Positions 3,445-64,000 of a stretch of DNA of 64,000 bases are shown here, piece by piece. The notes beneath the pieces are model-generated. The model saw only the letters and a list, made by a program, of their open reading frames with translations. It did not search any database and was not told where the DNA came from. Source of the stretch: Sphagnum compactum (taxonomy: Eukaryota); assembly GCA_965153455.1 (NCBI GenBank), contig OZ234493.1, positions 25,162,213 to 25,226,212 on the forward strand. Reading direction: 5' to 3'. The translations under genes and the position numbers were made by a program. How positions within the stretch are numbered: position 1 is the stretch's first letter; the number at the start of each line of letters is the position of its first letter.

Positions 3445-4059
3445 TCAATTTGCATCCATGGTCACGCCCACAGCCACATTGCTGACCAGCTTGCCGCTCT
3501 CATCCAAAGTCATAGGATTCTCCACAACAACTGTCTGTGTGTGGTGAGACTGAGTGTTGGATGCGACAGAGACTGGAGGAGGAAGAAGAAGCTGTTGTGG
3601 TGGTGTTGGTACTATAGGTCTCAGCTGCTGCTGCTGTTGTTGGGTGGGAGGCAATGGCATCCGCATGTTAGGAGGCATGGCAATGGAAGTCACATACTGA
3701 CACAAAGCACACTTGACAGACTGAGCCCCGTATGCATACATGAGTGTCATACCACAACCACCACAATTGATATGCGCCACAGCAGCAGCCGCAGGAGGAG
3801 GAGCTAATTCCATCGCCAGATTCACCGTGTGACAACAGGAGCACTGCACACTAGTGGCTCCTCGCATGTACATCAACAAAGTCCGACATCCCCCACATAC
3901 CAACTGTGCCATCTCTGCTGCCCCGTGTGGTGGCACCGTCGTCACCGAGCTGCACAGCGCACATCGCACATTACTGGCTCCTTGTGGATACACCAACAAC
4001 GTGCGACATCCGCCGCAGATCAGCTGTCCTTGTGTTCCTTGCATAAGCTGATACGGCAT
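3445..4059 (-). CDS. LSD1: LSD1-type zinc-finger protein (LSD1/LOL family), ~204 aa, single coding exon
   Basis: Three zf-LSD1 motifs ([66 protein letters not shown]) and the LSD1 C-terminal motif [25 protein letters not shown]. First in-frame ATG is at 4059 (alternative 4044); the ORF-track start at 4116 is not an ATG. Confidence 0.93.
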
Positions 4060-4859
4060 CACCACGACCAAAACTTCCCCCCCGCCCCCCCCCCAAACCC
4101 CTTCTTTCACTCTCACTCACTCTTCTCCACCTCCTCTCCTCCCCCTAAAACAACCCCCCCCCCCCCCCCCCACTCTTTCTCTCTCCTCCTGAAAGCTTAA
4201 CAACCAAAACCCACAACTTTCTTTCCCTCTCCTGCTCCTCCCTCTCTTGCTCCTTCTCTTTTTTCTTCTTCTTGTTCTTCAATACTTAACCCGTCAATCG
4301 CAATGCACACAACAAACAAATAAAGAAAGAAACCCAATAAAAACACAACAATTTTTTCTCTTTACACAAATGTTACACAACTTGTGCAAACCCAAATTGG
4401 ATTTGCAAGTTTTAATCTATAGACTGTACACAGACAGACAGTCCACTTCACAGATATGGTACAGACAGAAGAAGAGAGCTAGAAGGGCAAGCATGCACAG
4501 AAAGGAGAGATACAAAATAGCAGAAAAAAAAAGAAACAAAGTAAGCACGGCAATAGCAACAGCAAAACCAAGCCAAGCCAAGCAGAGCAGCCAGCGAGCG
4601 TGAGAAGGAGCGAGCGTGGAAAAACCAAATCCTTGCGCGTGGTAAGAACAGAACTCTGTCAGCTCTAAATCCAAAGGTCCTTCGCAACGACTGACAGACG
4701 CTCCTCTTGTTCCGTTGTCGTGTTCCTTCGTCCCTGTGCGGGCACGCGGACAAGTAATTCGGGCAGATCTGGGCAGGTCGATCCGGGCAGTTCAGGCCAA
4801 GCTCGGGCAGAATATCATGTAGTCAGTCAGGGCCAGGGTCGGACAGACCGACCTTTCTT

Positions 4860-9619: not shown

Positions 9620-10045
9620 CCCCCCCACTACCTACGTACCCACCTATTTACCTACCCACCCACCTACCTACTTACCCACCACCAACCCACCCATTTACAT
9701 ACCTACCCACCATCCACCCACCTACCTACCTATTTATTTACCCATCCACCCACCCACCCACCTATATTTACCTAAGTATACCTATCTACCTTCTCATGCA
9801 CACACCCACCCACTTACCTACCTACATGTGATTTAGCCACCCACATACCCACCTACCCACTTACCCACGCCTAAATGCCAACCCACCCACATATGGCTCC
9901 CCCACCTATTTACCCACTCACCCACCCACTTATTTACCTACCCACTCACCCACCCACCTATTTACCTACCTACATTTTATTATTTTTATCCTATAACCTA
10001 CCTACCTCCTACCCATCATCCTACAACTTGTTACCTACCTCATAG
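9620..10045. repeat. Degenerate (CCTA/CCCA)n microsatellite-like tract
   Basis: Runs of CCTACCTA/CCCACCCA; the ORF at 9601-9831 is a by-product. Related tracts lie at 11525-11640 (opposite strand) and 11945-12050. Confidence 0.85.
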
Positions 10046-12094: not shown

Positions 12095-14810
12095 TGCCGA
12101 AACCTAAACTAAACCTTGGGTAAACATTAGTTAAACTAAAATTTGGCTAAAGGTTGATTAGACATTGGCTAAATTAAAATTTGGCTAAAGGTCAAGGCCA
12201 AACATTGGCTAAAGGTTGGCTAAGCATTGGCTAAATTAAAACTTGAATTAAAGGTTGGTTAAACTGGGTACAAGTAAAACTTTGTTATATATTGGCTAAA
12301 CATTTAAAAATTTAAATTTGGCTACACATTACTTAAACTAATATTGGGATGCACATTAATTGAAACAAAATTTTGGCTACACAAATTAGCTAAATTAAAA
12401 CTTGTCTAAACATTGCCTAAAAATTAATTAAACTAAAACTAGGTTACACATTGGCTAACTTAAAACTTGGTTAAACATTGTTTGAACTAAAACTTGGCTA
12501 CACATTGGCTAAACATTAGCTAAAAATTATTTTGGCAAAAATTTGCCTAAACATTGGTTAAACTAAAAGTTAATTAAATATTGGATAAATGTTGGCTAAA
12601 GAAAATTTTGGCTAAAACTTAGGTAGAATTTGGTTAAAATTTGGTTAAACGTTGATTAAATTAAAAGTTGGTTAAACCTTGGTTAAAGATTGGTTAAAAA
12701 AGAATTTGGTTAAAATTTGGTTAAACATTGGTAAACAAAAAGTTAATTAAACCTTGGTTAAACATTGACTAAATTAACATTTGGTTAAAACTTGGTTGAA
12801 CATTGGCTAAACATTGGCTAAACAAAAATTTGGTTAAACCTTGACTAAACATTTATTAAATTAACATTTGGTTGAAATTTGACTAAACATTAATTAAATA
12901 AAAAGTTGGTTAAACCTTGGTTAAACCATTATGAAAAATTGCGTCTATCGAAACCACATTACCCTACAACTGAAACTCAAAAAACAACAAATATACAATT
13001 ATTGTGCAACTATTCCATAGGTATTACAATTGTTGTGCAATTATCCCCCTAGAAATATGATGTATTAATAAATAAATTATCACGTTAGAAAACTAGTCAA
13101 TTGTATTATGATTGCAAGTAAGTTGAAAATGGGTATTTTATATGGTAATTTATACACATCGTACATACATACATAGTCAACCATGTTTGATTTTTTAAGG
13201 AGTTGCATTGTAATTACATGTGACAACTATTTTGAAACTATTGTAAATGTCACTAAAGTATGTTGCAATTAATGTACAATGTCTATACATGCAATCATGC
13301 CACATGTCCACATTTTCACCACTCATTATGGGATACATTTGCAACTAGTTTTCAATTATGATTCCCCACTAGTGCACCATACTAAAGTATTATTATTCAA
13401 CTATGTTATGATTATAATACAACTACTTATAACTTAATAAGGATACATATTCATCAATTATTTATATCTTCATCATATGTGTTTCATTTTGAATAATTTA
13501 AAATGTTATGGGACCGTTACTTTAAGCTCTAGAAATCATCTTGGAAATGTAAATGAAAAGGAGTAATGAAAAAATAATGAGAAAAGAAATAAACTTTCCA
13601 AGTTACAAAACACATTTTATTTTTCTTTGAACCCCTCTTATTTTCAAACCTCATAACTTTCTTAATTATTATTCATTTTAAACAATTTAAAATGTTATAG
13701 GAATTCCACTTGAAATTCTACAAATCATCTTTGAACTCTAATAACAACAAAACCTATAAGGAATTTTTGGGTGTTCAAGAACCAACCTTTGTAACATTTG
13801 ATGGTTTCTTTTTTTGAGTTTTTGACCCCCTCTATTTTGGGGTGCCATAATTTTCTTAATTCTATTATTTTTTGATGATTTTAGTGCACTAGATGCGTCA
13901 ATAGGAGGGGTTCAAGTTTTGTTTGCACACTAAACATCAAGCCTTCCCCTTGGATTAGGCTTGCTTTTGAGTGTTTAATTGTTATAGTTGCAATTCAATT
14001 ATAGCTCAAATTGCAACTAAGAAACAATTAAAATATTTAACCCATATGTTTTCTCTTTGAATCCCATGTTTCAAACTATATAAAAAAGGCTTGTTCCTTT
14101 ATGTTTTCACATTAAAATATATTTTCCATTTTGGGACGAGTTAAAAAAAACTTAACTTAAAGGCAAAAAAAATAAATTCATGTCTATTCTTTAATTCATT
14201 CATACATCTTATGTTTTCCTACCTACCTTACCTAGGTAGGTAAGTAGGTTTTATCTTTCTACCTACTTATGGTTATGTATGACTTATATATATATTATTA
14301 TTATTCAAAATACAATTAATATGCCATGTGGAATTTTTTTTGTTGTGCCATATGTCACAATTTTGAACCATCATAAATAATCATAATGGACGATGGAGAT
14401 CAATATTTTGAAAAATAATAATTTTTATGTCCAAAAAATTTCATAGTGTCATGTGTTAAATCTTAATAAATGGATGACAATTAATGATGTTAGCATGACA
14501 TCACGGGTGTAGTTATAATGGAGTTGCATTGTAGTTGAAAATGAATTGTTTTGATAGAATTACAATTGAGTTGTAGTGAGTTACACTGTATGTACAGTGA
14601 ATTACAAGTTTGCAATTCATGTAACTTGTTCGTTAACACTCACGGTGTATAAATACAGTGAGTTGCAAGGCCAATTGCAAAACACCCATTTTTTTCATTA
14701 TGAACATTTATTGTACAAACATTTGGTTAAATTTTGACAAAACATTGGTTAAACTAAAAGTTAATTAAACTTCGACACAACTAAAAGTTGTTTAATTTTT
14801 GGCAAATTTA
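12095..14810. repeat. TTGG(C/T)TAAA-core satellite (10-11/20-21 bp periodicity), split by an insertion at 12927-14702
   Basis: Dozens of TTGGCTAAA/TTGGTTAAA cores at 12095-12926, resuming at 14703-14810. Confidence 0.85.
12927..14702. mobile_element. Non-autonomous CACTA-like DNA transposon (~1.78 kb)
   Basis: Termini CATTATGAAAAA / TTTTTCATTATG (11/12 inverted match), 3-bp TSD AAC at 12924-12926 and 14703-14705, subterminal TTGCAACT-type repeats; cleanly interrupts the satellite. Confidence 0.7.
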
Positions 14811-25998: not shown

Positions 25999-27104
25999 CA
26001 TTGTCAATGAATGTGCATCTTGTCATGAAGGCATGAATGTCACACTCCAAATAACTGTTCTTTGGAACAATGATTGTGAGTAATGGTGTTTGGATTATTC
26101 ATCACTGTCAAGGGTTTCAGTGTTCATGTGAGTCTATACTGTACCATTTGGTTTCTTTAGAAATTGATTTGAGGTGTAGGATTTTTGCATGCAGAGAGAC
26201 TGTAGCATGATGTTCTCAAGACTTGTATAGCCACATTTGTCTACTAGGAGTTGATGAACAGTTTTTCCAAACCATAGGCCAAAAGATGTGTTTCCATGGT
26301 GAGCGAACCGTTTGTTAAATTTTCAAGACTCAACAAATTTAGTGCTATGATATATGATTATTATATAATAAAGTGAGCATCGGGATGTTGCTATCCTGCT
26401 GCACAGGAAGAAGGCCTTTCAGTCACCCAAGCTTCAGCTGGCAGCTGCCATGTACTATACAGGACTTTTACATGTGCATAAATCTCTGGAAAAAGTCTTA
26501 TGTTTGAAGCAAGGGTGTGATTGAGACTCAAAAAAGAGAATAATACCCTGTGAGGCTTGATAGGAAATTTCTTCTTGTTCCTGAAGCCTCAATTCAATGG
26601 ATGAGCAAAAAAGGCACAATTGGTTTTGGGGAATGTCTTAAGATGGGTAACATTACCAATGTGTGGTTCTGTAGCTCTGTGCAAATATACCTGAAGATCG
26701 TAGCAGCAAATTGGGTGGAATTAGATCTGCACTAGTGATGAGATCTTAAGATGAAAGACAACTCTAACACCAAAGTGCTAATGGAAAAAGTGATGACACA
26801 GTGATGACAGTGTGCTCCTGTGTCTGAGCTCAAAGAATGCACTTTGCATTCAGAATTTGATCAAAACTTAGTCCAATGATGTCAATAAGGGGTTGACCTC
26901 ATCTTGCCTGCATTCTATTGAAATGAAAATAACAATTCACATACTCATGAGGGCATTCAATTGGATACATAAACAAAAACCAAAGTCTATCTACAATTAT
27001 ATGTTGTCCATTGTGAAGTTTGTTATATCAAAATTCCCAACTTCTCAAACCTTCTGAATACTATATATGTGCTTTGGTTGCCAACTTCAGGACGCCCATG
27101 AAAT

Positions 27105-27290
27105 CCATAAATTTCATATCATCAGATCTGGTGAGAAATAAATCCATGAATTTCATATCATCAAATCCGGTGAGAACAAGTCCATGAATTTCATATCATT
27201 GGATCTGGTGAGAACAAGTCCATGAATTTCATATCATTGGATTTGGTGAGAACAAGTCCATGAATTTCATATCATTGGATTTGGTGGGAA
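27105..27290. repeat. 38-bp minisatellite, ~5 copies
   Basis: CCATGAATTTCATATCATTGGATCTGGTGAGAACAAGT repeated at ~27105, 27144, 27182, 27220 and 27258. Confidence 0.9.
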
Positions 27291-27403: not shown

Positions 27404-27883
27404 TTATTGTTTCATGGGGAAGAAAGCTTGAAGAGGGAAAGATTGCACAAACCCTTTGCAATCCTTGAAATGAATTTTGCCAAATGTTGTATCATTATCT
27501 ACCCACAACTCTCTATAATTTACAGATAAATATAGAGTTTTGTGGACAATGGGTTTCATTTTCCAACCATTCAAATCCAAAATCTTGCCTTTCTGAATCC
27601 TGCCTGACATTTGCTCCCCACAAAACACCATTGAGTTTGCACTTTGAAACTCTTGTTCACATCGGGTTTTCAACTGCAACCACCACCTGCCTGAGCTCCT
27701 ATCAAAACCAAATTCTTCAACACACCGTAGTGGAAACATACCTGGAGGAAAGCCAAATTCCTCTAACAGTAACAAGAATTTTGGAAGTGCTGCAGGCCCC
27801 TTGATCACATCCTGCTCTTGTATAATACCATTTGCAAGCTCTGATGTAGGAGGAGGAGGAGGAGACCCTAAGTCGTCTGCCAT
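27404..27883 (-). CDS. DUF538-family protein (~159 aa; start could lie further upstream at 28093)
   Basis: LLEEFGFPPGMFPLRCVEEFGFDRSSGRWWLQLKTRCEQEF..SGRIQKGKILDLNGWKMK..ELWVD..GKIHFK..SFPLQAF matches the DUF538 pattern (LLxExGLPxGLLP..G+I..L.G+K.K..SFP..AF). Confidence 0.8.
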   Translation of the reverse strand: MADDLGSPPPPPTSELANGIIQEQDVIKGPAALPKFLLLLEEFGFPPGMFPLRCVEEFGFDRSSGRWWLQLKTRCEQEFQSANSMVFCGEQMSGRIQKGKILDLNGWKMKPIVHKTLYLSVNYRELWVDNDTTFGKIHFKDCKGFVQSFPLQAFFPMKQ

Positions 27884-28362
27884 TATTGTCTCATGTGGTC
27901 TTCCTGTACTACCTTGAAGAATACATTGAGGCTGAAGAGGCCACAATGATTTGCAACTTGTATGACTGGAAAATTTTGCAATGTCTGTTGCTTGTGTTAT
28001 ATTGTGATTGTTGCACCAATTTGGGTGCAACAGGGAGATGCAATGGAAATCATTGCAACATCTTTTCTCTTTGTTACTTGCAACTGTATCCATGTGTGAT
28101 CCCACTCTCCTTGTGCAAGGAAGGCAACAAATCAACCGACTTGACAACAAAGAAGCTTTGGTGCTGCACCCAAAACCATGTTTTGCTACCACCTCTCAGC
28201 ACCAGTACCCATATACATTTGTCCCCACAATAGTCACACTGTCACCAGATCTACAAGGACTCTAGATCTAGAACCAACAACAGCTTTTATGATCTCCAGT
28301 TTGCCTAAACCCTAATGGTGCATGCCACCATCTGATCTTCTCCCAAGTGCTCCTGCTTGCAC

Positions 28363-28690
28363 TTCCATGCATCCTTGAACAATAGCTTGATGGAACAACT
28401 TAGTCTTAGTGCAGGTCTAGAATTCTTGTAATAATTTTTTTCCATTTCCAGCTTGATGATGTACTTGTTTCCATGCATCCTTGGACAATAGCTTGATGGA
28501 TCAAAGTCTCGGTGCAGATCTAGAATTCTTTGAATAATTTTTTTTTCCATTTCCAGCTTGATGATGCACTTACTTGTTTCCATGCATCCTCTGACAATAG
28601 CTTGATGGATCAAAGTCTTGGTGCAGGTCTAGAATTCTTGTAATAAATTTTGTCCATTTCCAGCTTAACAATGCACCGTTTCCATGCATC
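28363..28690. repeat. Tandem repeat, ~105-bp unit x3 plus a partial unit
   Basis: TTCCATGCATCC..ACAATAGCTTGATGGA..TCTAGAATTCTT..TCCATTTCCAGCTT at ~28363, 28469, 28578 and 28680. Confidence 0.88.
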
Positions 28691-31270
28691 TTTGCCTTCC
28701 TTGTACTCAGGTTTCTTGCTATATGGATCTCAAAATCTCAAGCAAAGCTTATAGAAGGTGAGAAAAAAATTGCTTAAAACACCAACGGTGCAATTCTGTA
28801 TTGTAATTTGGTTGGTATTGTAGTGCAATTGCATTGTAATTTGGTGTATATGCTTCACTCAACATGTTTGTCAACACTTTTTTCTTTTTTTTTGGTGTGC
28901 TTTATGCCCCATTCTTCAGTTTCAAATTCTCTTTTGGACTTTCCATCCAGAGAATAATTGTGTTGTCTTCATGGATTGATTCAAGTTGGTGGTATCAAAT
29001 TTGATAGAGACACAAAGATCACTTTACTTCTTGTTCATCATTTGGTACCTGCCTCTGTGTTTTTGTTTCATAGCTCCAGATCTTCCCAATTTTCTATCTT
29101 GCTGTCTTTCCATTCTTGGAAAATTTGGCAGAATTCAATTATTAGGAAATCCAGATGAAAACAACTTTGTTTTTTTCCCCCCAACTCGCCATCTTGAGAA
29201 TTATTTAGCATCAAACATGTGTGACAGGTATGATAATCCAGATTAAGAGACCATAACAACAACAAACAAAAGGTGCATTGCTCTTGAGTTCAACCCTTGC
29301 AAGCTTCAATATGTAATCTGGTATGATTTTTGATCGTGGGTCATGGAAATATCAAGCTCATCTTGAAGTGGTTGGAGCTGATGATAAAATGCCACTTTCT
29401 GATTTTCTTCCTCAGTAAATGGAGCCAGATCTGATGCAGGTATGGGGAAAGACATGAAACAACAATGTTAACTTAGAGCTACAAGTTGAAATATATGAAT
29501 GACTCAAGTCTTGTGATGGCAATAGAATATGTTGCAACTTGAAACCAGTGTGTTGGAAGGTCCTTGACTTTTAAGGATAAACTCTGGTTCCAGTTTTCCC
29601 ATTCAACACAGAGAATGCTTCCAGGTCCAGTTGGGTTTTTTGAAAATGTAAAAGACTTGGTTGGATGGCGTTTCCATTTTATAACCAAACTCAGGGCCAG
29701 TTCCAAATCTGGTTTGGTTATTTCAAAAGGTCAAAGTGCCATCTGGTTTGGGTCTGGGTTCTCAATTGTGGGGTGTGGATCCAGATCCATTTGTTTGAAG
29801 AAACTTTGCCCAATTCCTAGTGAACAATTTGAATAGGTTATGGTTAGTTCTTGGTTAGGTTGGAATTGGGTAAACTAGATTAATTTTGCCTTTGCAGAAT
29901 CAAACATGCCCAAAAGAAAAGGGGATGATTTTATTGCCAGAAAGCGTTGCAATGTAAACAATATGTAGATTGACACCTGAAGGCTAGGATGAGAGCCAAC
30001 ACTCAACATTTGAAAAATACTATAGTTGAAGAATACAATGAGAAGTAGCACCAATTCAATAGTAAAATGGTCTTGGATCTTGAACACCAACTTTTCCAAG
30101 GTCCAAGTCCGAGCAACAAATCTTCAAGATTAGAGTTGAATCTACAATCATCACATGCTTTTCAAAATCCAAAACCCACCAAAAATCCAAATTTGAGTAG
30201 GTCATCTTGGATTAGACCATCCTTCACTTAGCAAAATTTGTTTTCACACTCATTTTTCTCTTTCATGATATTTCTTCTATATCAATGTATTTGAACTTTG
30301 AACCATTCATTCCCTTTCTCTTGTGAATTTCAAAAAACTACACAACTTAAGACTTTGACTAACATTTATATCCATTCAACAATAAATGACAACTTGATGC
30401 ATTTTACTTTCAATCTTTCAATTTGCAATCTCTTGGCTTTCAAGTTTTGTGACAACACTTAGCACTAATGTGACAAACTCTACATTTCCTCAATTGTCTC
30501 ATCATTTCTAGATGCTCAACTTCAACTAATGTACAACTTAACAACAAAGAATCACAATCTTCCTTGTAACTACATGCCCTCACATCATAGAGTCCCATTG
30601 TTTTGCCAACAATGACCATAGCCCACCACTAATTGATATGGAAGATAAATATGGCTTCAAAGGACTAGGAACACAACCAACAAAGGTTGATGCGATGGTA
30701 GAAACACAACAATCTAAGTCTATTAATTTGATGGTAATGCTAACCATTGCATGGACTTAGGGGTTTCAAGAACTTCAACATGATGAACATCCTCCATCTC
30801 TTAAAAAATTACAAAAATAAACATAAACAAGACCTCCTAATAACGTAACAAAAGAAAACGCAAAGACAAAGCAAACAAAAACGACAAGCACAAAACAAAA
30901 TAAACATAGAGAGAAAATATATCTTAGGTTTGAAGCACAACGGGCCTTTGTTGTGCTTGGTGAGCCAAAATGTGATGAACAAGGTGAGCAACAAAACATT
31001 GAAAGGTCACACACATAAAAAAACACATGTTGCAAACCCAAAATGAAAAAAACACACAATAAACAAAACACAATGGAGCAAAAAGATGAAACACATGGTG
31101 GTACTGATGGAGTTGTTACATAGCCAACAAAATGTGATGTGACAAAGTTGTTAAAATAATGAACTGATGATGGTGGAATCATTGAACAACATACACAAAA
31201 CAATTGAACAAAAAAATGAAGCTAAAAAGTGATGATGACAAAGCCTCTACGTAATAAATACAACACATAA

Positions 31271-49012: not shown

Positions 49013-51410
49013 AACAAGAAAACCCTATAATTGCAATCCTTCATGCACAGCAAGACCCTACAATTGCACACCCTATAAGTTACTTAAGATTAGTAAGCAT
49101 TTCACTTACAAGAACCCAAGTGTTGTTATCCAAGATAGGAAACACAAGTGTGTGAAAGATAGGGTTTTTGTATGCAAGGAGAGAGAACAAGGGTGCATGG
49201 CAATAGGGGACCTGGTGTGTAATGGTAATAGGGGAATTGAAATGATAGAGGTCCCTTTACACATGGAAATGTAAGGAAATATATGCGAAACAACACAAAA
49301 TCATATGCCTGATAAACTTTCTATTTGCCAATTATGGGCAATATTTTCATTATATATGAGTTATTTAATTTTAATTTTTGGGGGTTAGTGGGTTGTCTCC
49401 CTTTGCTGAAAATTGATGCAGAAATTCAATAAATATGGATGAAAACATGGATGGACGTGTTGAGATATTTTCATCCAGTTCTAGGATCCCTGCAACCCTA
49501 TTATGCTAATAATCCATGCCAATCTCCTAAATGGCAAATGTAAAAAATATCAGGAAAACACTAAATATCACTTCTGTGCTAAGACTGTGCCTACCTTGTC
49601 ACGAAAATAGTAAGACAACAATACCCTAGTACCTTGGCCAATTTAACACTACTTATATTGTTTTCAGACATGTTGAAATTGGTCCAAAACAGGTGCCATA
49701 TTAGCCTCAATTTGCCACTTTTTGGTCTTGGACCCTTGTCTAAAGTCCTTGGGACCAATTTAAAGCTTTCGACTAGTAAGATTGCTTCAATCCATTTGTC
49801 TCTGGACCTTGGACCCTTGTCTAAAGTTGCCCTTAGTTTCACAACATGTTTTTCCATTATTTATTTACAGTGCACACAAATATACCTCTGTACCAGCGTT
49901 TTCTTTTTCTTTTTTTTCAATTTTGTGGTTTGTAAACTTTGTTGATTTTTTCCATTTTTTTCCATTTTTTTCTCAACTTCACACTAGTAAAACGGATTTT
50001 CCCAATTTCTTCAGAAAAAAAATTGTAGCCACAGTGCGACAATTCCCGAAGAAAAATCACTGCTCTGTACAGTGGTTTTTCCACTCTGGATTTATTTGCT
50101 ATGACCGTCCATGTAATTTTTCCTTCTGCCCCCAGGCTCCTCCAATCATAGCCACTGGCCAGGGCGAACCTAAACTGATACACTCGCCATCTTGAGTGAG
50201 GCCTCTTGAGTTTAGGGTTTGGGTTTGTAGATTCAGAGACCCTGATTTTGTCTAAGGACGCTACATATATCTAGAATGTTTTGAAGCTGACCCCAAAAAC
50301 TTTGGGATTTTCACCGTGGTTCTAATGTAGGCCAGGTTCACCCAACCAAGGCAAATTGACCCACCAAAGCCCATTTCAATTGCTCGTAAGTATTCTAAAT
50401 ATTTATAAATGTCATTACCATAGACTAAATCAGGGTCCCAAAGTCCAAATCTATAAATTTTGGGGCCTAATATGGCCATTTCAATGGGTTTTGGAGATTT
50501 TTACAGTGATCCTAATGTGAAGGTCAATTCACCCTGGCCGGTTCGCCCAAGGCCCAATGAATCATGCATTGCCTGCAACATGAGCTCTGGCAGAGCGCTT
50601 CAATAATGCACTGGCTGAAATCAGCCAACAGCAGGAAACGTGTGGATCACTAATTTGTTGGGTCAGTTTTGAGATATAGCCCAAGTGGCTATCATCGGTA
50701 GGAAGATTTAGTCAGATTTGGCTATGAGCTAAATATGGCATTCGAAATTTTTTAACATATTTCTCTTTTGTTGGCTACCTACTTGAAACCCATGTGTGGA
50801 ACTCTGACGATTTTTCTTTGAATTTGGTTGAATTTTGGCTATTGAGAATCTCAAAAAGCATTTGATTTTAACACTTTTTTAATTGATGACTTAGCTTTTT
50901 TTCAGCTCTGGTTTTTTAGTAAAAGAAAGGTCGGTGTGTGGATGTGAACAAAAGTCATGATGATAATCATGGGCCAAGAAATCGGTAAAGCGCAGATGCT
51001 ACAGTCTGAAGAGTCCTGGCAAAACCCTTCTAGAAGTTTCTGGGGGAGGAGAAAATGAAGAAGAAGAAGAAACATCCGGGAGAAAAGTCGAAAAAGGAGT
51101 AAGAAAAGAGAGTGGGAATTCCAGGGAGATCGTGAAGAGGAAAGGGGTTGATGTTTTTTGGGGAGATCTAGTGGAAAGATCAGCTTAGCTTGCGGGAATC
51201 TGTGATGTGAGGGACACCCATCATACCTTGGGTATGCTATTGGGATGGCAAAGGATTTGTAGCAGGTTTTATGAGAGCAAAAGGTTAAGAGAAAAATATT
51301 TTTGAGAGCAGTGAGCAAAAGGAATTTCAGTAGTGCGAAATATGGGAAATTCATATGGCCTCAAGGGAAAAGGAGTTGATCTTTCACAAGCGCCACCAAA
51401 AAGAAAGAGA

Positions 51411-51716
51411 GATGTTGGGCGGATCCCTGCTGTGACTGAGACACCTTCGGTCCCCACTGAAAATGCTCCTTCAAGCTTTGGATGGCACAGCAATGTGGTG
51501 CTTCTTCTTAATTTTATGATGAGCTTTCTTTGCACAGTTTTTTCTTGGGCTTTCCCATGTAAAGATATTGTGCAAATACCTGCTGCGATTGAGACACCTT
51601 TGGTCCCAGCTGAAAATGTTCCTTCAAGCTCTGGATGGCACAGCAATGTGGTGCTTCTTCTTACTCTTATGATGAGCTTTCTTTGCACACTTTTTTCTTC
51701 GGCTTTCCCAAGTTAC
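51411..51716 (+). repeat. 153-bp tandem duplication in the 5' region of the HNL gene
   Basis: GAT-TTG-GC..CCTGCTG..GAGACACCTT-GGTCCC..TGGATGGCACAGCAATGTGGTGCTTCTTCTTA..GCTTTCCCA at 51411 and 51564. Confidence 0.88.
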
Positions 51717-54700
51717 ATGTTGAAGTTTGATTTTTCTTTGCTTTTTAAATTTGTTTGGGTGTTGACAATTTTCCGTGACCCATACAACCACCATAGCTTA
51801 TTGTCCTCACAAAGCATCAAGAGAAGGAGGTCTAGTTCAGATTTGAACTCCCAGCCAACAGCTTCGCAACCATACCCTTTAGCCACTAGGGTACCTGAAT
51901 GTCCTAAATCATTTACAAGCTTCCTTGCCATACATTTTCACTTTGCCTACTTTCCAGTTTGTTTGTTTAGATAAAAACGATATGAAATGATGTTTTAAAC
52001 AGTAGGAAATTTAGTCATCATTATAGCCTCTTACATTAGGCCAGCGACTCACTTGCTAAAACAAGTAGAATTGGTGAAAGGGAAATTCGTCAATTGGCAC
52101 TGACTAAAAATATATTGAACTTGTAAGGATTGGAACTTTCCTTATAGATTTTGAGTTAGGTTCAATGTGTAGTCTTAATCCAACAACCTAAGGCAAATTA
52201 TTAAACTGCTCTTGGACATTCTTATTTGGGTTTGTGTCCCAATTCCTTAGAGGTCGGAGGCCTTAGTGGCCCAAATGTTGGGGAAAATGTCATGAAATAC
52301 AAATGAACCAAACTAGATGGCTTAGTCAATCGACCCAAACTTGAAAGAATCCAATTCTGAGAATTAACCTTTTATTGATCGACATATGTTCCACCTACTA
52401 TGTAAAAGTATTTACTTAATTGAACTATGTTTTGAAACTTTGACACATGTGAATGATCTTCATTTGTTAGTCATGCAAGAACTATAATTTGTATATTGCA
52501 TTTCTCCAATTTATTGTATAGTCAAATAATTTTCAAGAGATGTTTGAACAATTGTGTTGACTCTTTTTCATTTTCTTTGCAAAAATATATAGTGCATGAT
52601 TTAAATCCCACTTGCAATACCAATAATCCAAACTTGACCATCGTTTTTTTTCATTGGATTGCTTTTGGCACAAATGATGAATGGAAAGAAACATGGACAA
52701 CATGCCCCACCAACAATAGAGAAGAGTGCATATGTTGGCCAGAAAAGTGGCTACCCGAAGACTTGAACAACAATGTTCGAATTTTATCATTGTCTTATGA
52801 TTCTAAAATTGTGACAAGTGTTCACAATGATGTGATTGAAATTGGCAAAAACCTCATTCAAAGTTTGGTTACAAATTCAAGGTGTGACAATCTCTTCTAT
52901 TTAAGGACACATTAATTACTTCTCCTTATGTATATTAAAGAAAATTGTTTAGATCTTTAGAATTTCTTAAATGTTGTGCATGAGTTTATTGTTCATGTGT
53001 ACTAGTATTGTGATACACACCAACAAGTTTCAATTTATTTGAATTGTTAGATTAATGTAGGAGAACATAAAATGGGGCTTAGGTTCAAATGTTCTTGTTT
53101 GAAGATAATAACAAAGTCTATGTTCATATTATAAGTTCATGGTACAACTAGTTTGGTTTTGATGGCAAGTTTTAGGTCGAGCTTTTTGGAGCTTTATCTT
53201 TGGTAATGGAATTGAATTAAATTAAATTTTATTAATACATGTGTAGAAAATTTGCATCCATTTCATTGCAAAAAATAATTTCAAAAAGAATGTATCTTTT
53301 TTTTAAAAATTTCTTTTTGTTTCAACAATATTTCCAAGGTAACACAGAAGATGAATTGTGCATTAACACAAGAACGTAAACGCCTACATACTTGTACATT
53401 ATAATTGTTTTACCAAAACTTGGTTGTCACATTTTTTAGGTAAATTAATTCCAAATGACAAATGACAAACAAATCAATTACGAACTTATGGTTTAGGTCA
53501 TGTGTGAATTGGAAAATTGTCCCCAAGTATAATAGGACAAATTTGTACATGTTAATACAATGTTGATAATGGAATTTTATGCATTGTTGAATATTTTGTA
53601 GTTATCAATCGTTTTGGGATGGACCGGTGGCATTAATTGCTTATAGTTTTGGAGGTCTTATACTCAAAAGCTTGGTGGTTGAAGCTCACAAACATGTACA
53701 TCAAAGGTCAAAAAATAGTTTGGATGATGAAGTCCACAAATGTTGTAAGACATTTTTGAACAATGTTAAAGGTGTAATATTTTACGGTGTACCACATGTT
53801 GGCGGTACCCAATATTTATCAAATTATTTCATTTGGCAACATCAACAAATCAACACATTGAACAAGTGTGCAACCCAATCTGGTTTTTTAAAAAGTTTAA
53901 AATCTTTCAACCCACAAATGGAACACCTTTCAACAGATTTTAAAAATGTTATTCCTGAAGACGTCAACATTTATGCATTTGGTGAAGGATTACCACTCGA
54001 CAAAAATTAGGTAAGATTTTCATTTCACCACATCGAAAGTTATCCAACTAAGTTCATTAATTGAACATTTTTTTGTGTCGTCAAAATTCATGTGGGATCA
54101 TGTACTCAATACTTCTTAATACAATAATGTGGCGAATGGGTCATGTGTTTTATGAACTTTGTTTCATGAAATACTATTGATGGAAAGATAATTTGATTGA
54201 CTTCAAACATCATGAAATAGGTTTTAAATTTTTCCTTCATCAAATCACTTCCATATAAATATTTGTCATGAAAATCATATCATCATTAAAACATGTAAGA
54301 TTAATGAGATTAAAAACCAATAACTTTGTGATTTGCTTGCCAAAGGGTTGAAGGAAATTACTTTCACACAAAACATTTCATTGTTATTCAAACATCAATA
54401 GTTATTAAGCTATAGTTTCCACCACCATTTGGATTTACTATGTTACTTATAAGTTCAAGCATAGTTGAACAAACAAATCAATGAGTTCTATTAACTTAAT
54501 CTTTTGCTCATGCAGGGAATTTTAGTGCCATATGCCTCAGCTATTCAATTGTCAAACAACAACCATTATAGAATTGAAGATGCTAATCACTTGACAATTT
54601 GCAAGCCACCAAACAAAAATCATCCAAGCTATTAAAATGTTTGAGAATATGTATGGAGGTAAAAACATCAAATCTACGTCTTTTGACTTCATATATGTTC

Positions 54701-56309
54701 ACGTTATGTTATAAATTTTAGGTCATAACACACTTGATGTGTATCGCATATGCAATGTCATATATATTGGTTATCAAATAAGAAAAATAAAATATAAATG
54801 ACGTTTGTTTTGTGAATTTTGATAGAAAAATATATTACTTCCACCTTTGCCATGTCATGAGGTGGTGTTGATTGACAAAGCAAAAGATATAAACATCTTG
54901 TTACAAAAGGAAACTATTGTTGGTTTGGTTGGAATGGGGGGAATTGGGAAAACCACTTTGAGCAAAAAGTTCTATCATTTGTTCCACAACCAATATGACA
55001 AATCTAGCTTTTTGGAGGATGTGAATTCAAAGGACAATATCAATGATGTCATAAAACAACTCCTACATGATTTGTGTGACAAAAGAATATCCAAGGATGA
55101 AAATGTGAACAAAGAAGACTTTGAAAAAATTAGGCAATGTATGATATCAGAGAAAGTGTTAGTGGTGGTGGATGATGTTGGTAAAGTGGAGAACCTTACG
55201 TCCTTGCCAATTTTCATTGATAAGGCTGCTAGGAATGCAGCTTCTAAAAGTAGAATACTTGTGAATTGTCGAAATTGGCAAAGTCTAAAATCTCACGTAA
55301 GTGAAGATGGAAAAATGATCATGAAAACTTTGGAAGAAGAGCAAGCAATGGAACTTTTTATGTTCCATGCATTCGGTAATGCAAATCACCTTCCAACAAA
55401 ATATTTCAAAGATATATGTAACGAGATTATAAAAGCTTGTGGAGGGCTCCCTTTAAGTCTTAAAGTATTGGGTTCTTTTTTGTGCGATATTAAAGAATTC
55501 GAAATCTGGGAAGGCGCATTGAACAAATTGAAAAGTGGGCAAAGTTTCACCGGGGGCAATGATAATGAAAAACTTTGGAGTAAATTAAAGATTTCTTATG
55601 AGTATTTGGATAAGGAACATCAAAACATGTTTTTGGATATTGCTTGTTTATTTGGTGGTATGAAAATAAGGACAATTTGTCGAGCGTGGAATGGAGATTA
55701 TTTTCACCCAAAATTTGCATTGCAAAATTTAGAACATAGATCTTTAATCCAACGCGGAGAAGGTGGAATCTTGTACATACATGAACAATTCCGAGACATG
55801 GGTCAAAATATTGCAATGGAACTTCCAATTATGAATCGATTTATATGGAAAGCAAATGAGTCAAATTTCGTTTTACAAAACAATGAAGTTATCACCATAT
55901 TATTTCAATCTTATAATTTTATTTCGATTTCCTATGAATTTGTTTAATGTCCAAAAATAAATGTTTTAACTTTGAATCTTGATTTTATGAATAATGTTTG
56001 TAATAAAAATTAAGAATAAGATGATTTTTTTTTAATATATTAATAATCCTTTTGTTTTCATTTCATGTGATAGGTGGTGGAAATTTTAGAAGGCATCTCA
56101 TTGAAAAAATGTGTCAATTTGGCTACATTGTCCCAAATCGGCTCCAAGGGATTTTGCAAGCTTAGGTTGGTTGACTTAACAGAAGCTTCATCAACTATTG
56201 TGGAAAATTGCATTCGAGGGCGAAATTTGAATAATGTTAAGTGGTTGTGCCTCAAAAATTGCATGATTTGAAAGTTGCCAAGTAATTTGTTTGATTGTTT
56301 ACAATTACA

Positions 56310-59283
56310 AGTACTTGATTTGTTAGGGTGTTCCACCTTGAAAAAATTACCTTCATCTATTGGCCAATTGAATGCACTCGAAGAGCTTGATTTGTCAAGG
56401 TGTTCCAATTTGAAGGAACAACCTTCATCTATTGGCCAATTGAATGCACTCCAAGAGCTTCATTTGTCAGGGTGGTCCAAGTTGAAAAAACTACCTTCAT
56501 CTATTGGCCAATTGAATGCTCTCCAAGAGCTTCATTTAAAAGGGTGTTCCAACTTGAAAAAACTACCTTCATCTATTGGCCAATTGAATGCACTCCAAAA
56601 GCTTCATTTAAAATGGTGTTCCAACTTGAAAGAACTACCTTCATCTATTGGCCAATTGAATGCACTCCAAAAGCTTCATTTAAAATGGTGTTCCAACTTG
56701 AAAGAACTACCTTCATCTATTGGCCAATTGAATGCACTCGAAGAGCTTGATTTGTGGGGGTGTTCCAACTTGAAAGAACTACCTTCATCTATTGGCCAAT
56801 TGAATGCACTACAAGAGCTTGATTTGTGGGGGTGTTCCAACTTGAAAGAACTACCTTCATCTATTGGCCAATTGAATGCACTCCAAGAGCTTAATTTATA
56901 TGGGTGTTCCAACTTGAAAGAACTACCTTCATCTATTGGCCAATTGAGTGCACTTCAAGGGCTTTATTGTCAAGGTGTTCCAACTTGAAAGAACTACCTT
57001 CATCTATTAGCCAATTGAATGCACTCCAAGAGCTTTCTTTGTGCGAGTGTTCCAACTTGAAAGAACTACCTTCATCTATTGGCCAATTGAATGCACTCCA
57101 AGAGCTTAATTTGTCAAGGTCTTCCAACTTGAAAGAACTACCTTGATCTATTGGCCAATTAAGTGCACTCCGAGAGCTTAATTTGTGCGGGTGTTCCAAC
57201 TTGAAAGAACTACCTTCATCTATTGGCCAATTGAATGCACTCGAAGAGCTTGATTTGTGGGGGTGTTCCAACTTGAAAGAACTACCTTCATCTATTGGCC
57301 AATTGAATGCACTGCAAAAGCTTGATTTGTGGGAGTGTTCCAACTTGAAAGAACTACCTTCATCTATTGGTCAATTGAATGCACTCCGAGAGCTTTATTT
57401 GAAAGGGTGTTCCAACTTGAAAGAACTACCTTCATCTATTGGCCAATTGAGTGCACTCCAAGAGCTTTATTTGGGAGGGTGTTCCAACTTGAAAGAACTA
57501 CCTTCATCTATTGGCCAATTGAGTGCATTCCAAGAACTTTATTTGTCAGGGTGTTCCAACTTGAAAGAACTACCTTCATCTATTAGCCAATTGAGTGCAC
57601 TCCAAGTGCTTTATTTGTCAGGGTGTTCCAACTTGAAAGAACTACCTTCATCTATTGGCCAATTGAATGCACTTCGAGAGCTTAATTTGTCAAGGTGTTC
57701 CAACTTGAAAGAATTACCTTCATCTATTGGTCAATTGAGTGCACTCCAAAAGCTTTATTTGGGAGGGTGTTCCAACTTGAAAGAACTACCTTCATCTATT
57801 GGCCAATTGAGTGCACTCCAAGAACTTTATTTGGGAGGGTGTTCCAACTTGAAAGAACTACCTTCATCTATTGGCCAATTGAATGCACACCAAAAGCTTT
57901 ATTTAGATGGGTGTCCCAACTTGAAAGAACTACCTTCATCTATTGGTCAATTAAATGCACTCCAAAAGCTTTATTTGAAAGGGTGTTCCAACTTGAAAGA
58001 ACTACCTTCATCTATTGGCCAATTGAGTGCACTCCAAGAGCTTTATTTGAGAGGGTGTTCCAACTTGAAAGAACTACCTTCATCTATTGGCCAATTGAGT
58101 GCACTCCAAGAACTTTATTTGTCATGGTGTTCCAACTTGAAAGAACTACCTTCATCTATTGGCCAATTGAATGCACTCCAAAAGCTTTATTTAGATGGGT
58201 GTCCTAACTTGAAAGAACTACCTTCATATATTGGCCAATTGAATGCACTCCAAAAGCTTTATTTGTCAGGGTGTTCCAACTTGAAAGAACTACCTTCATC
58301 TATTGGCCAATTGAATGCACTCCAAGAGCTTGATTTGTGGGGGTGTTTCAACTTGAAAAAATTACCTTCATCTATTGGCCAATTGAATGCACTCCAAAAA
58401 CTTTATTTGGGAGGGTGTTCCAACTTGAAAGAATTACCTTCATCTATTGGCCAAATGAATGCACTCCAAGGGCTTTATTTGTGGAAGTGTTCCAACTTGA
58501 AAGAACTACGTTCATCTATTGGCCAATAGATGCACTCCAAAAGCTTTATTTAAAAGGGTGTTCGGATTTGAAAGAACTACCTTCATCTATTGGCTAATCG
58601 AATGCACTCTAAAAGCTTTATTTATATGGGTGTTCCGATTTGAAATAACTACCTTCATCTATTGGCCAATTGAATGCACTCCAAAAGCTTTATTTAAAAG
58701 GGTGTTTCAACTTGAAAGAATTACCTTCATATATTGGCCAATCGAATGCACTCTAAAAACTTTATTTATATGGGTGTTCCAACTTGAAAGAACTACCTTC
58801 ATCTATTGGCCAATTGAATGCACTCGAAGAGCTTTATTTAAAATGGTGTTCCGATTTGAAAGAACTACCTTCATCTATTAGCCAATTGAATGCACTTTAA
58901 GCGTTTTATTTAGAAGGGTGTTTCAACTTGAAAGAATTATCTTCAACTATTGGCGAATTGAATGCACTTTAAAAGCTTGATTTAAAAGGGTGTTCCAACT
59001 TGAAAGAACTACCTTCATTTATTGGCCAATTGAATGCAGTCGAAGAGCTTGATTTGTCAAGGTGTCCGACTTGAAACAAATACCTTCATCTATTGTCAAT
59101 TGAATGCACTCCAAAAGCTTTATTTGTGAAAGTGTTCCAACTTGAAAGAATTACCTTCATCTATTGGCCAATTGAATTCACTACAAGAGCTTTATTTAAA
59201 AGGGTGTTCCAACTTGAAAGAACTACTTTCATCTATTGGCAATCAAATGCACTCCAAAAGCTTTATTTATGAAAGTGTTCCAA
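56310..59283 (+). repeat. 72-bp (24-codon) LRR-coding tandem array, 41 units
   Basis: Core TGTTCCAACTTGAAAGAACTACCTTCATCTATTGGCCAATTGAATGCACTC every 72 bp (71 at frameshifts), from ~56352 to ~59228; consensus LxLxxCSNLKELPSSIGQLNALQE. Confidence 0.97.
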
Positions 59284-59409
59284 TTACTATATTGGTATAT
59301 GTCGAAAACATTTTTCAATTAGTTGGTCAATTACCGAATATTCTCAACATCAACAATGTCTCCAAGTTGAACACTCAACTATGTTGATAAACAATGTGAA
59401 ACATGTTTT

Positions 59410-62009: not shown

Positions 62010-64000
62010 GGCATATGTTCCACCTCCTATGTAACAATATTTACTTAATTGAACTATGTTTTGAAACTTGGAGGTTTATGACACATGTGAATGATCTTCA
62101 TTTGTTAGTCATGCAAGATAGATTTGGCATTCTCCAATTCGTCTCTTATTGTCTTTTTGTGAAACTTAATATTTTCAATTAATTATTGCTTTTATCTAAC
62201 TACTATAATTTATATATTTCTTTAATTTAATGTATAGTCAAATAATTTTCAAGAGTTGTTTGAAGAATTGTGTTGACTCTTTTTCAATTTTTTTGCAGAA
62301 ATATCTAGTGCACGATTTAAATCCCACTTGTAATTCCAATAATCCAAACTTGACCATCGTTTTTTTTCATGGGATTGCTTTTGGCACGAATGATGAATGG
62401 AAGGAAACATGGACAACATGCCCCGCCAACAATAGAGAACAGTGCATATGTTGGCCTAAAAAGTGGCTACCCGAGGACTTGAACAACAATGTTCGAATTC
62501 TATCATTGTCTTATGACTCTAACATTGGTAAGAACCTCATTCAAAGTTTGGTTCCAAATTCCAGGTGTGACAATCTCCTCTATCGATGGACACATAAATT
62601 ACTTTTCCTTATGTACATTAAAAATTATTGTTTAGATCTTTAGAATTTCTTAAACATTTTGCAAGAATTAATTGTTCATGTGTGCTAGTATTGTGAAACA
62701 CACAAACAAGTTTCAATTTATTTGAATTGTTAGATTCATGTAAAAGAACATAAAACGGGGCTTAAATGCAAATGTTCTTGTTTGAGGATAATAACAAAGT
62801 CTATGTTCATATTATAAATTCATGGTACAACTAGTTTGGTTTTGATGGCAATGTTTTAGTTCCAACTTTTGGAACTTTATCTTTGGTAATGGAATTATAC
62901 TATATTATATTAATACATGTGTAGAAAATTTGCATCCATTTCATTGCAAAAGTTTTTTAAAAAAATAGTGTATCTTTTTTTAATTAAAATTTCTTTTTAT
63001 TTCAATGGTATTTCCAAGGTAACACATAGAAGATGAGTTGTGCATTAACACAAGAATGTACACACCTACATACTTGTACATTATAATTGTTTTATCAAAA
63101 CATGGTTGTCACATTTTTTAGGTAGATTAATGGAATCAATAAATGACAAATGACAAGCAAATCGATTAAGAACTTATGGTTTAGGTCATGTGTGAATTGA
63201 AAAATTGCCCCAAGTATAATAGGATAAATGTTTACATGTTTATACAATGTTGATAATGGAATTTTGGTGCATTGTTGAATATTTTGTAGTTATCGATCCC
63301 TTTGGGATGGACCGGTGGCATTAATTGCTTATAATTTTGGAGGTCTTATACTCAAAAGCTTGGTGGTTGAAGTTCACAAACATGTACATTAGAGGCCAAA
63401 AAATAGTTTAGATTATCAAATCCACAAATGTTGTCACACATTTTTGAACAATGTTAAAGGTGTAGTATTTTATGGTGTACCACATGCTGGTGGTACCCAA
63501 TATTTATCAAATTATTTCACTTGGCAACATCAAGAAATCAACACACTGAACAAGTGTGCAACCCAATTTGGTTTTTTAAAAAGTTTACAATCATTCAACC
63601 TACAAATGGAACACCTTTCAATAGATTTTAAAAATGTTATTCATGAAAACCGCGACATTTATGCATTTGGCGAAGGATTACCAATTGATGAGAATTGGGT
63701 CAAATTTTCATTTCACCACATTGAAAGTTATCCAACTAAGTTCAGTAGTTGAACATTTTTTGTATTGTCAAAACTTGTGTGGGATCATGTACTCAGTACT
63801 TTTGAATACATTAATGTGATGAATGGGTCATGTGTTTTATGAACCTTGTTTCCTAAATTACTATTGATGGAAAAAAAATTTGATTGACTTCAAACATCAG
63901 GAAATAGGGTTTAAATTTCCTTTCATCAAATTAATTCCATATAAATATTTGTGAGGAAAATCATATCATCATTAAAATATGTACGATTAATGAGAATAAA
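62010..64000 (+). pseudogene. HNL copy 3, 5'-truncated, running off the window; hydrolase exons ~62299-62564 and ~63289-63699
   Basis: Parallels 52382-54310 including introns: KYLVHDLNPTC..FFHGIAFG..WPKKWLPEDL, an in-frame 33-nt deletion, IAYNFGG and an in-frame TAG at ~63390. Confidence 0.88.

Follow-up and report, generated by a model that had tools for sequence, protein, structure and literature searches.

A high-internal-conservation array of 41 leucine-rich repeat units in a decaying hydrolase-NLR gene copy of Sphagnum compactum

Introduction

The closest described parallels to the DNA analyzed here are fungal NLRs with high internal conservation (HIC), i.e., the WD40 proteins HET-E, HET-D and NWD of Podospora and further receptors built on ANK or TPR repeats. 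As set out in two accounts, their repeats are 80–100% identical (PMC13449251), about four positions on the binding face are hypervariable and experience diversifying selection, and repeat number varies, the shuffling of repeats being ascribed to unequal crossover and conversion (PMC13449251, PMC4986451). A database survey places HIC NLRs in plants also, and section 12 of the account that reports it names no Sphagnum case (PMC13449251). The present study concerns a 72-bp tandem array in a 64,000-nucleotide stretch of Sphagnum compactum DNA (assembly GCA_965153455.1, contig OZ234493.1, positions 25,162,213 to 25,226,212 of the forward strand; hereafter the window, to whose first letter all positions refer). 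The array region is the leucine-rich repeat (LRR), or sensor, exon of a Sphagnum hydrolase-NB-ARC-LRR (HNL) immune-receptor gene.

The HNL class was named first in a liverwort and was there thought to be liverwort-specific (Xue et al. 2012, PMC3352924), and hydrolase-NLRs (Hyd-NLRs) are mentioned in Sphagnum (Chia et al. 2024, PMC11218826). In their accessible text, these accounts do not describe the structure of the LRR array (PMC3352924, PMC11218826). Literature searches in a library without most subscription journals, and without the figures and supplements of PMC11218826 and PMC13449251, returned no description of Sphagnum LRR arrays.

Three other systems invite comparison. The LRRs of the TNLs RPP1 and Roq1, which are irregular and precede a C-JID domain, contact effectors directly. 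In tomato Cf-2 and Cf-5 (work attributed to Dixon, 1996 and 1998) and in Arabidopsis RPP5 (attributed to Noel, 1999), intragenic LRR duplication and unequal exchange reportedly change repeat number; the repeated blocks of these genes are far shorter and less uniform than those considered here, and the Cf proteins are extracellular receptor-like proteins. In TAL effectors, a small alphabet of residues recognizes DNA one base at a time. The 1999 study by Noel is also cited for repeat shuffling in the HIC account (PMC13449251).

Results

The array and its variable codons

Tandem Repeats Finder (TRF) places a 72-bp period at 56314–59283, with 41.3 copies and 88% matches, and a frame-aware alignment to a 72-base reference unit splits the region into a degenerate unit 0 at 56272 and units 1–41, from 56344 to ~59290. 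Both analyses bear out the 41 units of 72 bp described in the initial annotation, which a model had made from the letters of the sequence. Each unit follows a 24-residue scaffold of the TNL-type LRR, E-L-P-S-S-I-G-Q-L-N-A-L-Q-x-L-x-L-x-x-C-S-N-L-K, and the exon matches the Pfam families LRR_14 (E 5.4e-111) and LRR_13 (RPS4B-like; E 3.9e-39).

Variation is concentrated in a few codons. Within units 1–30, 38 of the 72 nucleotide positions are invariant and 51 have an entropy below 0.3 bit, close to the approximately 50 near-identical positions estimated earlier; entropy is highest at codons 14, 16, 18 and 19, with lesser maxima at codons 10 and 13. The exposed codons of the xxLxLxx motif (13, 14, 16, 18 and 19), which make up 15 of the 72 bases (21% of the unit), contain 1917 of the 3221 pairwise differences among units 1–30 (59.5%) and 20 of the 45 minimal mutation events (binomial p = 3e-4). 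Variation is thus not uniform, and the proposed concentration of changes in xxLxLxx holds. Identity among units 1–30 is 0.81 for amino acids, 0.90 for scaffold positions and 0.90 for nucleotides, compared with a nucleotide identity of 0.83 among units 31–41.

Identical or nearly identical units recur at non-adjacent positions, as had been noticed: units 6 (56704) and 13 (57207) agree across all 72 bases, and units 22 (57855) and 26 (58143), 288 bp apart, differ at two. The palindrome ATTGGCCAAT, which encodes I-G-Q-L, is present in 30 of the 41 units and has no other copy in the window. A higher-order periodicity of the array was considered and rejected, as the mean mismatch hardly varies with lag (6.5 at lag 1, 7.9 at lag 15). 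Long open frames are also found on the minus strand of the array (56058–57370), e.g., one of 145 residues at 56933–57370 (−), and in shifted frames of the plus strand; these opposite-strand and off-frame reading frames are taken to be by-products of the 72-bp periodicity.

Selection on exposed and scaffold codons

Proportions of nonsynonymous (pN) and synonymous (pS) differences were obtained by Nei–Gojobori pairwise counting among units 1–30, rather than from a codon model. The exposed-codon pN is 0.303, three times the scaffold pS of 0.102; the scaffold pN is 0.036, and the scaffold pN/pS of 0.25–0.33 indicates constraint. The same contrast is found in the related arrays of at least ten units listed from the metagenome scan described below, where exposed pN exceeds scaffold pS in 47 of 48, i.e., in 21 of 22 lesion-free arrays (median ratio 2.0) and in all 26 lesion-bearing ones (median ratio 2.4). 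The anticipated nonsynonymous excess at xxLxLxx is therefore present here and in nearly all of these related arrays. These counts support a history in which diversifying selection would have acted on the exposed residues and purifying selection on the scaffold.

Predicted position of the variable residues

An AlphaFold2 model of a 460-residue open stretch, computed without an alignment, is a regular LRR solenoid with a mean pLDDT of 93.8. In the modeled unit, positions 14–18 form the strand and positions 4–8 a short helix; positions 14, 16 and 18 are interleaved with leucines 15 and 17 of the core, while residue 19 lies just past the strand. Exposed β-strand positions form the concave face of an LRR. 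Because of this strand placement and the established LRR geometry, positions 14, 16, 18 and 19 are assigned to the concave face, and the model supports the earlier proposal that the variable codons specify exposed residues of the predicted β-strand. This variable face would be the one that binds ligand. The closest solved sequences are those of RPP1 (PDB 7crb, E 4.4e-54) and Roq1 (PDB 7jlv, E 1.7e-41), and Foldseek returned only generic LRR horseshoes (Leptospira LIC11098, SHOC2 and RPP1).

The copy in the window is, as assembled, a decaying pseudogene

The array is not a single open reading frame, a point that escaped the initial annotation. Five units (9, at ~56967, 31, 38, 39 and 41) have 1-bp deletions, and ten in-frame stops are distributed over units 12 (TGA, 57144–57146), 31, 32 (two), 33, 34, 36, 37, 39 and 41, so that nine stops and four deletions fall within units 31–41; the longest open frames are 56272–56988 and 57147–58529. 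A further lesion is located in exon 4, where the tblastn alignment with P0002, a 1138-residue S. compactum protein, jumps from frame 3 to frame 2 between residues 377 and 380, and three-frame translation gives a stop immediately past HPSY, where relatives stay in frame. As assembled, the copy thus has 15 disabling lesions within the array plus another in exon 4, and the intact coding sequence of a functional HNL is missing. Scaffold pN/pS rises from 0.33 in units 1–30 to 0.66 in units 31–41, as expected from decay. This HNL copy, as assembled, is a decaying pseudogene with an eroded 3′ third, and the working diversification system that had been envisaged at this locus is contradicted by the lesions.

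It could be argued that the gene is intact and functional and that the lesions merely reflect mistakes made in sequencing or assembling a difficult repeat. Five lesions are single-base deletions, some of them inside short runs of T or G, isolated lesions are found in many related metagenome arrays as well, and a Sphagnum RNA run shows transcription and splicing of the HNL family. We nevertheless regard this explanation as improbable. The ten stops are base substitutions, nine of them in the same units 31–41 that also show raised scaffold pN/pS and lower identity; the frameshifting deletion in exon 4 spans several bases and lies outside the repeat; and the tandem neighbor at 62263 is broken as well.

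Some stop-bearing units resemble each other. The same stop and neighboring changes are common to units 32 and 34, and a TGA at codon 18 is common to units 39 and 41. Stop-bearing units may therefore have been duplicated after inactivation, which suggests that the dead array is still being rearranged like an ordinary minisatellite free of selection.

Public sequencing runs provide information on the family. The best run contains 0.34 of the words sampled from the upstream 5 kb. Reads on 52400–56343 are mostly 95–99% alike (1988 of 2188 in the RNA run X22 and 293 of 360 in the Hi-C run X21) and show near-fixed differences, e.g., 52655 T>G in 189 of 189 and 30 of 30 reads, and for these reasons they come from relatives of the copy in the window. 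In these relatives the family is transcribed from the plus strand and spliced at joints 52879>53600, 54656>54824 and ~55884>56072, the first of which is a GT..AG joint spanned by 118 RNA reads of close relatives.

The site pattern is a property of the Sphagnum HNL family

In 421 units cut from 41 Sphagnum proteins, entropy lies at 2.5–3.1 bits for positions 14, 16, 18 and 19, most other positions stay below 0.6 bits, and scaffold identity is 0.87 within and 0.80 between proteins. Metagenome contigs were scanned with a pattern degenerate at all synonymous sites, which yielded at least 134 stretches, of which 131 loci were taken on; after removal of overlaps these comprise at least 101 array segments with at least 1367 units. 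Among the matches listed, to which all further figures on these loci refer, the hypervariability pattern recurs in 1332 gap-free DNA units. Arrays range from 3 to 63 units, the largest having 63, 46, 44, 42, 38 and 35, and 48 have at least ten, 22 of them lesion-free, including L072 (44 units), L079 (42) and L025 (35). The longest (L064:736-5269, 63 units) has a single stop. The hypervariable-site pattern is a property of the whole Sphagnum HNL family.

This bears on the idea that the array is a neutral minisatellite with mutational hot spots, in which the variable codons are unselected. The pseudogene status of the copy and the apparent duplication of its stop-bearing units (32/34 and 39/41) would agree with such an origin, but we give it very little credence, as the same four positions are hypervariable in the 41 annotated proteins and in the 22 lesion-free arrays, fall on the β-strand face of the model and stand beside a constrained scaffold. 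In addition, codon 18 alleles are two or three bases different between units that are otherwise only 1–4 bases apart.

The uniformity of the scaffold extends to its codon choice, which is almost fixed; across the listed loci, e.g., 1281 of 1296 proline codons are CCT and 1251 of 1265 alanine codons are GCA. Its synonymous sites are not invariant, however, given the pS of 0.102 against a pN of 0.036 in units 1–30. At 13 loci that contain both an NB-ARC exon and an array (78 pairs), between-locus means of pS are 0.187 for the NB-ARC exon and 0.180 for the scaffold; within single arrays the scaffold pS is 0.10 in the window and 0.04–0.31 elsewhere. Because the two between-locus values match, no extra constraint on the DNA is needed, and conservation of the DNA scaffold beyond neutral expectation was rejected. 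A young family and purifying selection are enough to explain the uniformity of the scaffold. Some arrays, that in the window among them, coalesce at a more recent time than the split of their paralogues.

Unit turnover and residue combinations

Units 15–17 correspond to units 23–25 with 3, 1 and 2 mismatches, and units 6–7 resemble units 13–14, which fits multi-unit duplications of the kind made by unequal exchange. Of 190 informative site pairs, 66 show all four gametes, and units are therefore mosaics or carry recurrent changes. Comparison of the units in the window with the 12 units of P0002 and with the 18 units of L007, the closest DNA locus, gave no diagonal, and positional orthology with either was rejected. 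These patterns make recombination between units plausible.

Near-identical contigs from different data sets (99.1–99.95%) put a limit on its rate. Four of five such pairs are collinear through their arrays (25, 18+5, 8+6 and 5 units), and turnover is therefore not extremely fast. The fifth pair, L108 (780–900) and L128, is ~99.6% identical and differs only in an in-frame tandem duplication of 33 bp within a single LRR unit; the duplicated piece contains the ATTGGCCAAT core. Unit turnover is visible between paralogues and species, though it is not explosive. The reassortment by unequal crossover or conversion proposed initially is thus plausible in view of the blocks, the four-gamete pairs and the lost collinearity, but not so fast as to disturb the collinearity of most near-identical pairs.

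Across 1280 clean units, the four hypervariable residues make up 560 different combinations. The joint entropy of these residues amounts to 8.38 bits, compared with 8.88 ± 0.03 bits when the columns are shuffled, and 14 of the 21 combinations in the window are absent from every other array in the sample. The variable residues are near-independent and do not form a small alphabet or a code; the suggestion of a ‘code-like’ repertoire is not sustained, and a TAL-like repeat code was rejected.

More generally, a constant scaffold with few hypervariable codons, identical units that recur and a palindromic core in most units might be taken to reflect programmed diversification, i.e., somatic assembly as in lamprey variable lymphocyte receptors (VLRs), targeted mutagenesis like that of diversity-generating retroelements (DGRs) or a TAL-like code. 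Such a program is very unlikely. Germline DNA contains complete, contiguous arrays at more than 100 loci, and VLR-type assembly is disfavored because array and NB-ARC exon adjoin each other in the germline, both in the window and at 13 related loci. Differences among the variable codons affect each of the three codon positions and comprise every base type, the scaffold has the synonymous divergence of the NB-ARC exon, the residues assort nearly independently, and most near-identical contig pairs are collinear. Window positions 1–51300 contain only two open frames of at least 170 residues, neither of which is a programmed-diversification enzyme.

Gene architecture and genomic surroundings

Six exons were located in the window by tblastn with P0002, the closest match to the NB-ARC exon (Table 1). 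Exon 5 matches NB-ARC (PF00931; E 1.6e-33, 116.5 bits, cut-off 23.5) and WHD_ROQ1 (E 1e-10), so that both the NB-ARC domain and the C-terminal LRR of an HNL are found in the window. The match of exon 3 to DUF676 is weak (E 0.0085, 16.1 bits, cut-off 20.3); PF05057 appears in the precomputed domain lists of the family members P0013, P0060 and P0062, and exons 2–4 align at 88–100% with the N-termini of Sphagnum proteins. Next to P0002, the best relative of the NB-ARC exon at 93% identity, there are dozens at ~80% in S. fallax, S. jensenii, S. tenellum, S. balticum and S. troendelagicum, and angiosperm TNLs at ~30%. Exon 1 contains an internal tandem duplication (153 bp × 1.9, 51426–51710, 91% matches by TRF), and the doubled N-terminal segment is common to P0002 and P0010, which makes it a family feature.

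A second HNL paralogue begins downstream and continues past the end of the window; it has an in-frame stop and an 11-residue gap. Since both this paralogue and the copy with the array are broken, the window holds a small tandem cluster of eroding HNL copies.

Table 1 HNL exons, array sections and tandem paralogue in the window
Feature	Position	Strand	Basis
Exon 1, N-terminal region	51342..51647	+	tblastn, P0002 residues 1-102, 87% identity
Exon 2, first part of α/β-hydrolase-like domain	52550..52894	+	P0002 residues 92-206, 88% identity
Exon 3, hydrolase-like domain with AYSFGG nucleophile-elbow-like motif	53600..54007	+	P0002 residues 202-337, 97%
Exon 4, frameshifting deletion right after ...NHPSY (~54630)	54516..54658	+	tblastn, three-frame translation
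Exon 5, NB-ARC and Roq1-like winged helix, open frame	54826..55902	+	Pfam; 93% identity to P0002
LRR exon start, irregular N-terminal LRRs and degenerate unit 0 (56272-56343)	56074..56343	+	P0002 residues 743-800, 91%
Array units 1-30, scaffold well kept	56344..58502	+	Unit split, entropy, pN/pS
Array units 31-41, decayed tail	58503..59290	+	Unit split, lesions, pN/pS
Start of second, tandem HNL paralogue (hydrolase exons)	62263..63698	+	tblastn with P0002, 67% and 82% identity

Elsewhere in the window, a 223-residue open frame at 3445–4116 (−), ~47 kb from the NLR cluster, encodes three zinc fingers of the LSD1 type (Pfam zf-LSD1, E 1.8e-36); cell death in plants is regulated by LSD1-like proteins. 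An open frame of 263 residues at 27404–28195 (−) encodes a DUF538 domain (E 1.5e-15) and is flanked by tandem repeats of 38 bp × 4.9 (27104–27290) and 109 bp × 3.1 (28363–28694). CCCACC-rich repeats of 27–39 bp and an AT-rich satellite-like block with periods of 27, 38 and 87 bp occupy 9650–9970 and 12383–12926.

Discussion

Our preferred interpretation, to which we assign a probability of about 0.8, is that the array is the LRR exon of an HNL gene with 41 high-internal-conservation units, that it was shaped by ordinary forces acting on a young and large family, and that this particular copy is dead. Recent tandem amplification together with unequal crossover or conversion would alter the number and order of units and yield mosaic units, purifying selection would keep the structural scaffold, and diversifying selection would act on the concave, ligand-facing residues at positions 14, 16, 18 and 19.

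Several observations weigh against this interpretation. When nearest neighbors are assigned from the scaffold only, the neighbor lies strictly in the same array for just 163 of 1008 units, with 411 ties, and for the units in the window the own array is strictly nearer for 1 of 30, with 17 ties; within-array homogenization appears weak, and strong within-array concerted evolution is not seen in these counts. The pN/pS ratio inside the exposed codons is 1.23, a low value because multi-step codon paths inflate pS, and the case for selection therefore rests on the comparison with scaffold pS; pairwise pN/pS among repeats moreover disregards their common ancestry and recombination. The assembly is the sole basis for the number and order of the units and for the 1-bp deletions, and the reads of relatives give no verdict on the expression or the lesions of this copy. 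Lesions are present in 26 of the 48 listed metagenome arrays of at least ten units as well, which could mean that pseudogenes are common or that assembly errors are. That the length or order of the array is itself an artefact of collapse or expansion is most unlikely even though both rest on the assembly and the best public run matches 0.34 of the upstream words, since the units, at only ~90% identity, can mostly be told apart, arrays of comparable size (35 to 63 units for the six largest) are present on independent contigs and the flanks join known exon sequence correctly.

With fungal HIC NLRs, the Sphagnum receptors share the combination of an NLR with near-identical tandem sensor repeats and a few hypervariable positions on the binding face. 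The identities among units 1–30 (amino acid 0.81, nucleotide 0.90) lie within the 80–100% that characterizes HIC repeats, and the hypervariable positions show, by pairwise counting, the signature of diversifying selection on the predicted binding face. Repeat number ranges from 3 to 63 across loci, and one of the five near-identical contig pairs differs, by the 33-bp duplication within a unit. Unlike the fungal proteins, the Sphagnum receptors use LRRs instead of WD40, ANK or TPR repeats, belong to a plant and have a hydrolase N-terminus; moreover, their within-array homogenization is weak, and the copy in the window is dead. The Sphagnum arrays are an LRR-form analogue, and not a homologue, of the fungal HIC repeats.

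The order of an α/β-hydrolase-like N-terminus, NB-ARC and LRR is that of the bryophyte HNL or Hyd-NLR class, and so is the presence of introns between the N-terminal part and NB-ARC and between NB-ARC and the LRR. Kinship with the TNLs RPP1 and Roq1 is evident in the LRR sequence and in the Roq1-type winged helix that follows NB-ARC; unlike RPP1 and Roq1, the Sphagnum proteins end right after the array and have a hydrolase-like domain in place of TIR. TAL effectors likewise have near-identical tandem repeats with variation limited to few residues, but the Sphagnum units display many hundreds of residue combinations (560 in the 1280 units listed) on an LRR protein-binding fold.

A more far-reaching proposal, which we consider possible but doubtful, is that Sphagnum HNLs are the plant counterpart of fungal HIC NLRs, with more than 100 loci whose arrays, of up to at least 63 units, would gain, lose and exchange units within and between loci. 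If true, every exchange would reassort four residues of the binding face per unit, and novel recognition surfaces would arise at a much higher pace than by point mutation. Misalignment or exchange might be aided by the palindromic ATTGGCCAAT core, dead copies like the one in the window could serve as a store of units, and unit changes could even arise somatically in the long-lived clonal peat moss.

Apart from a possible role as a donor of units, the copy in the window is without a function of its own, and the interest for follow-up lies in the HNL family rather than in this locus. The sensors of plant NLRs are mostly irregular, and reading or engineering their specificity is difficult for that reason; the moss HNL family, with a near-constant LRR scaffold and four variable residues per 24, is a natural ‘repebody-like’ design. 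Long reads on its numerous intact and dead arrays would allow rates of turnover to be measured, and the comparison of moss HNLs with fungal HIC NLRs offers a test of whether repeat shuffling is a general route to new immune specificities.

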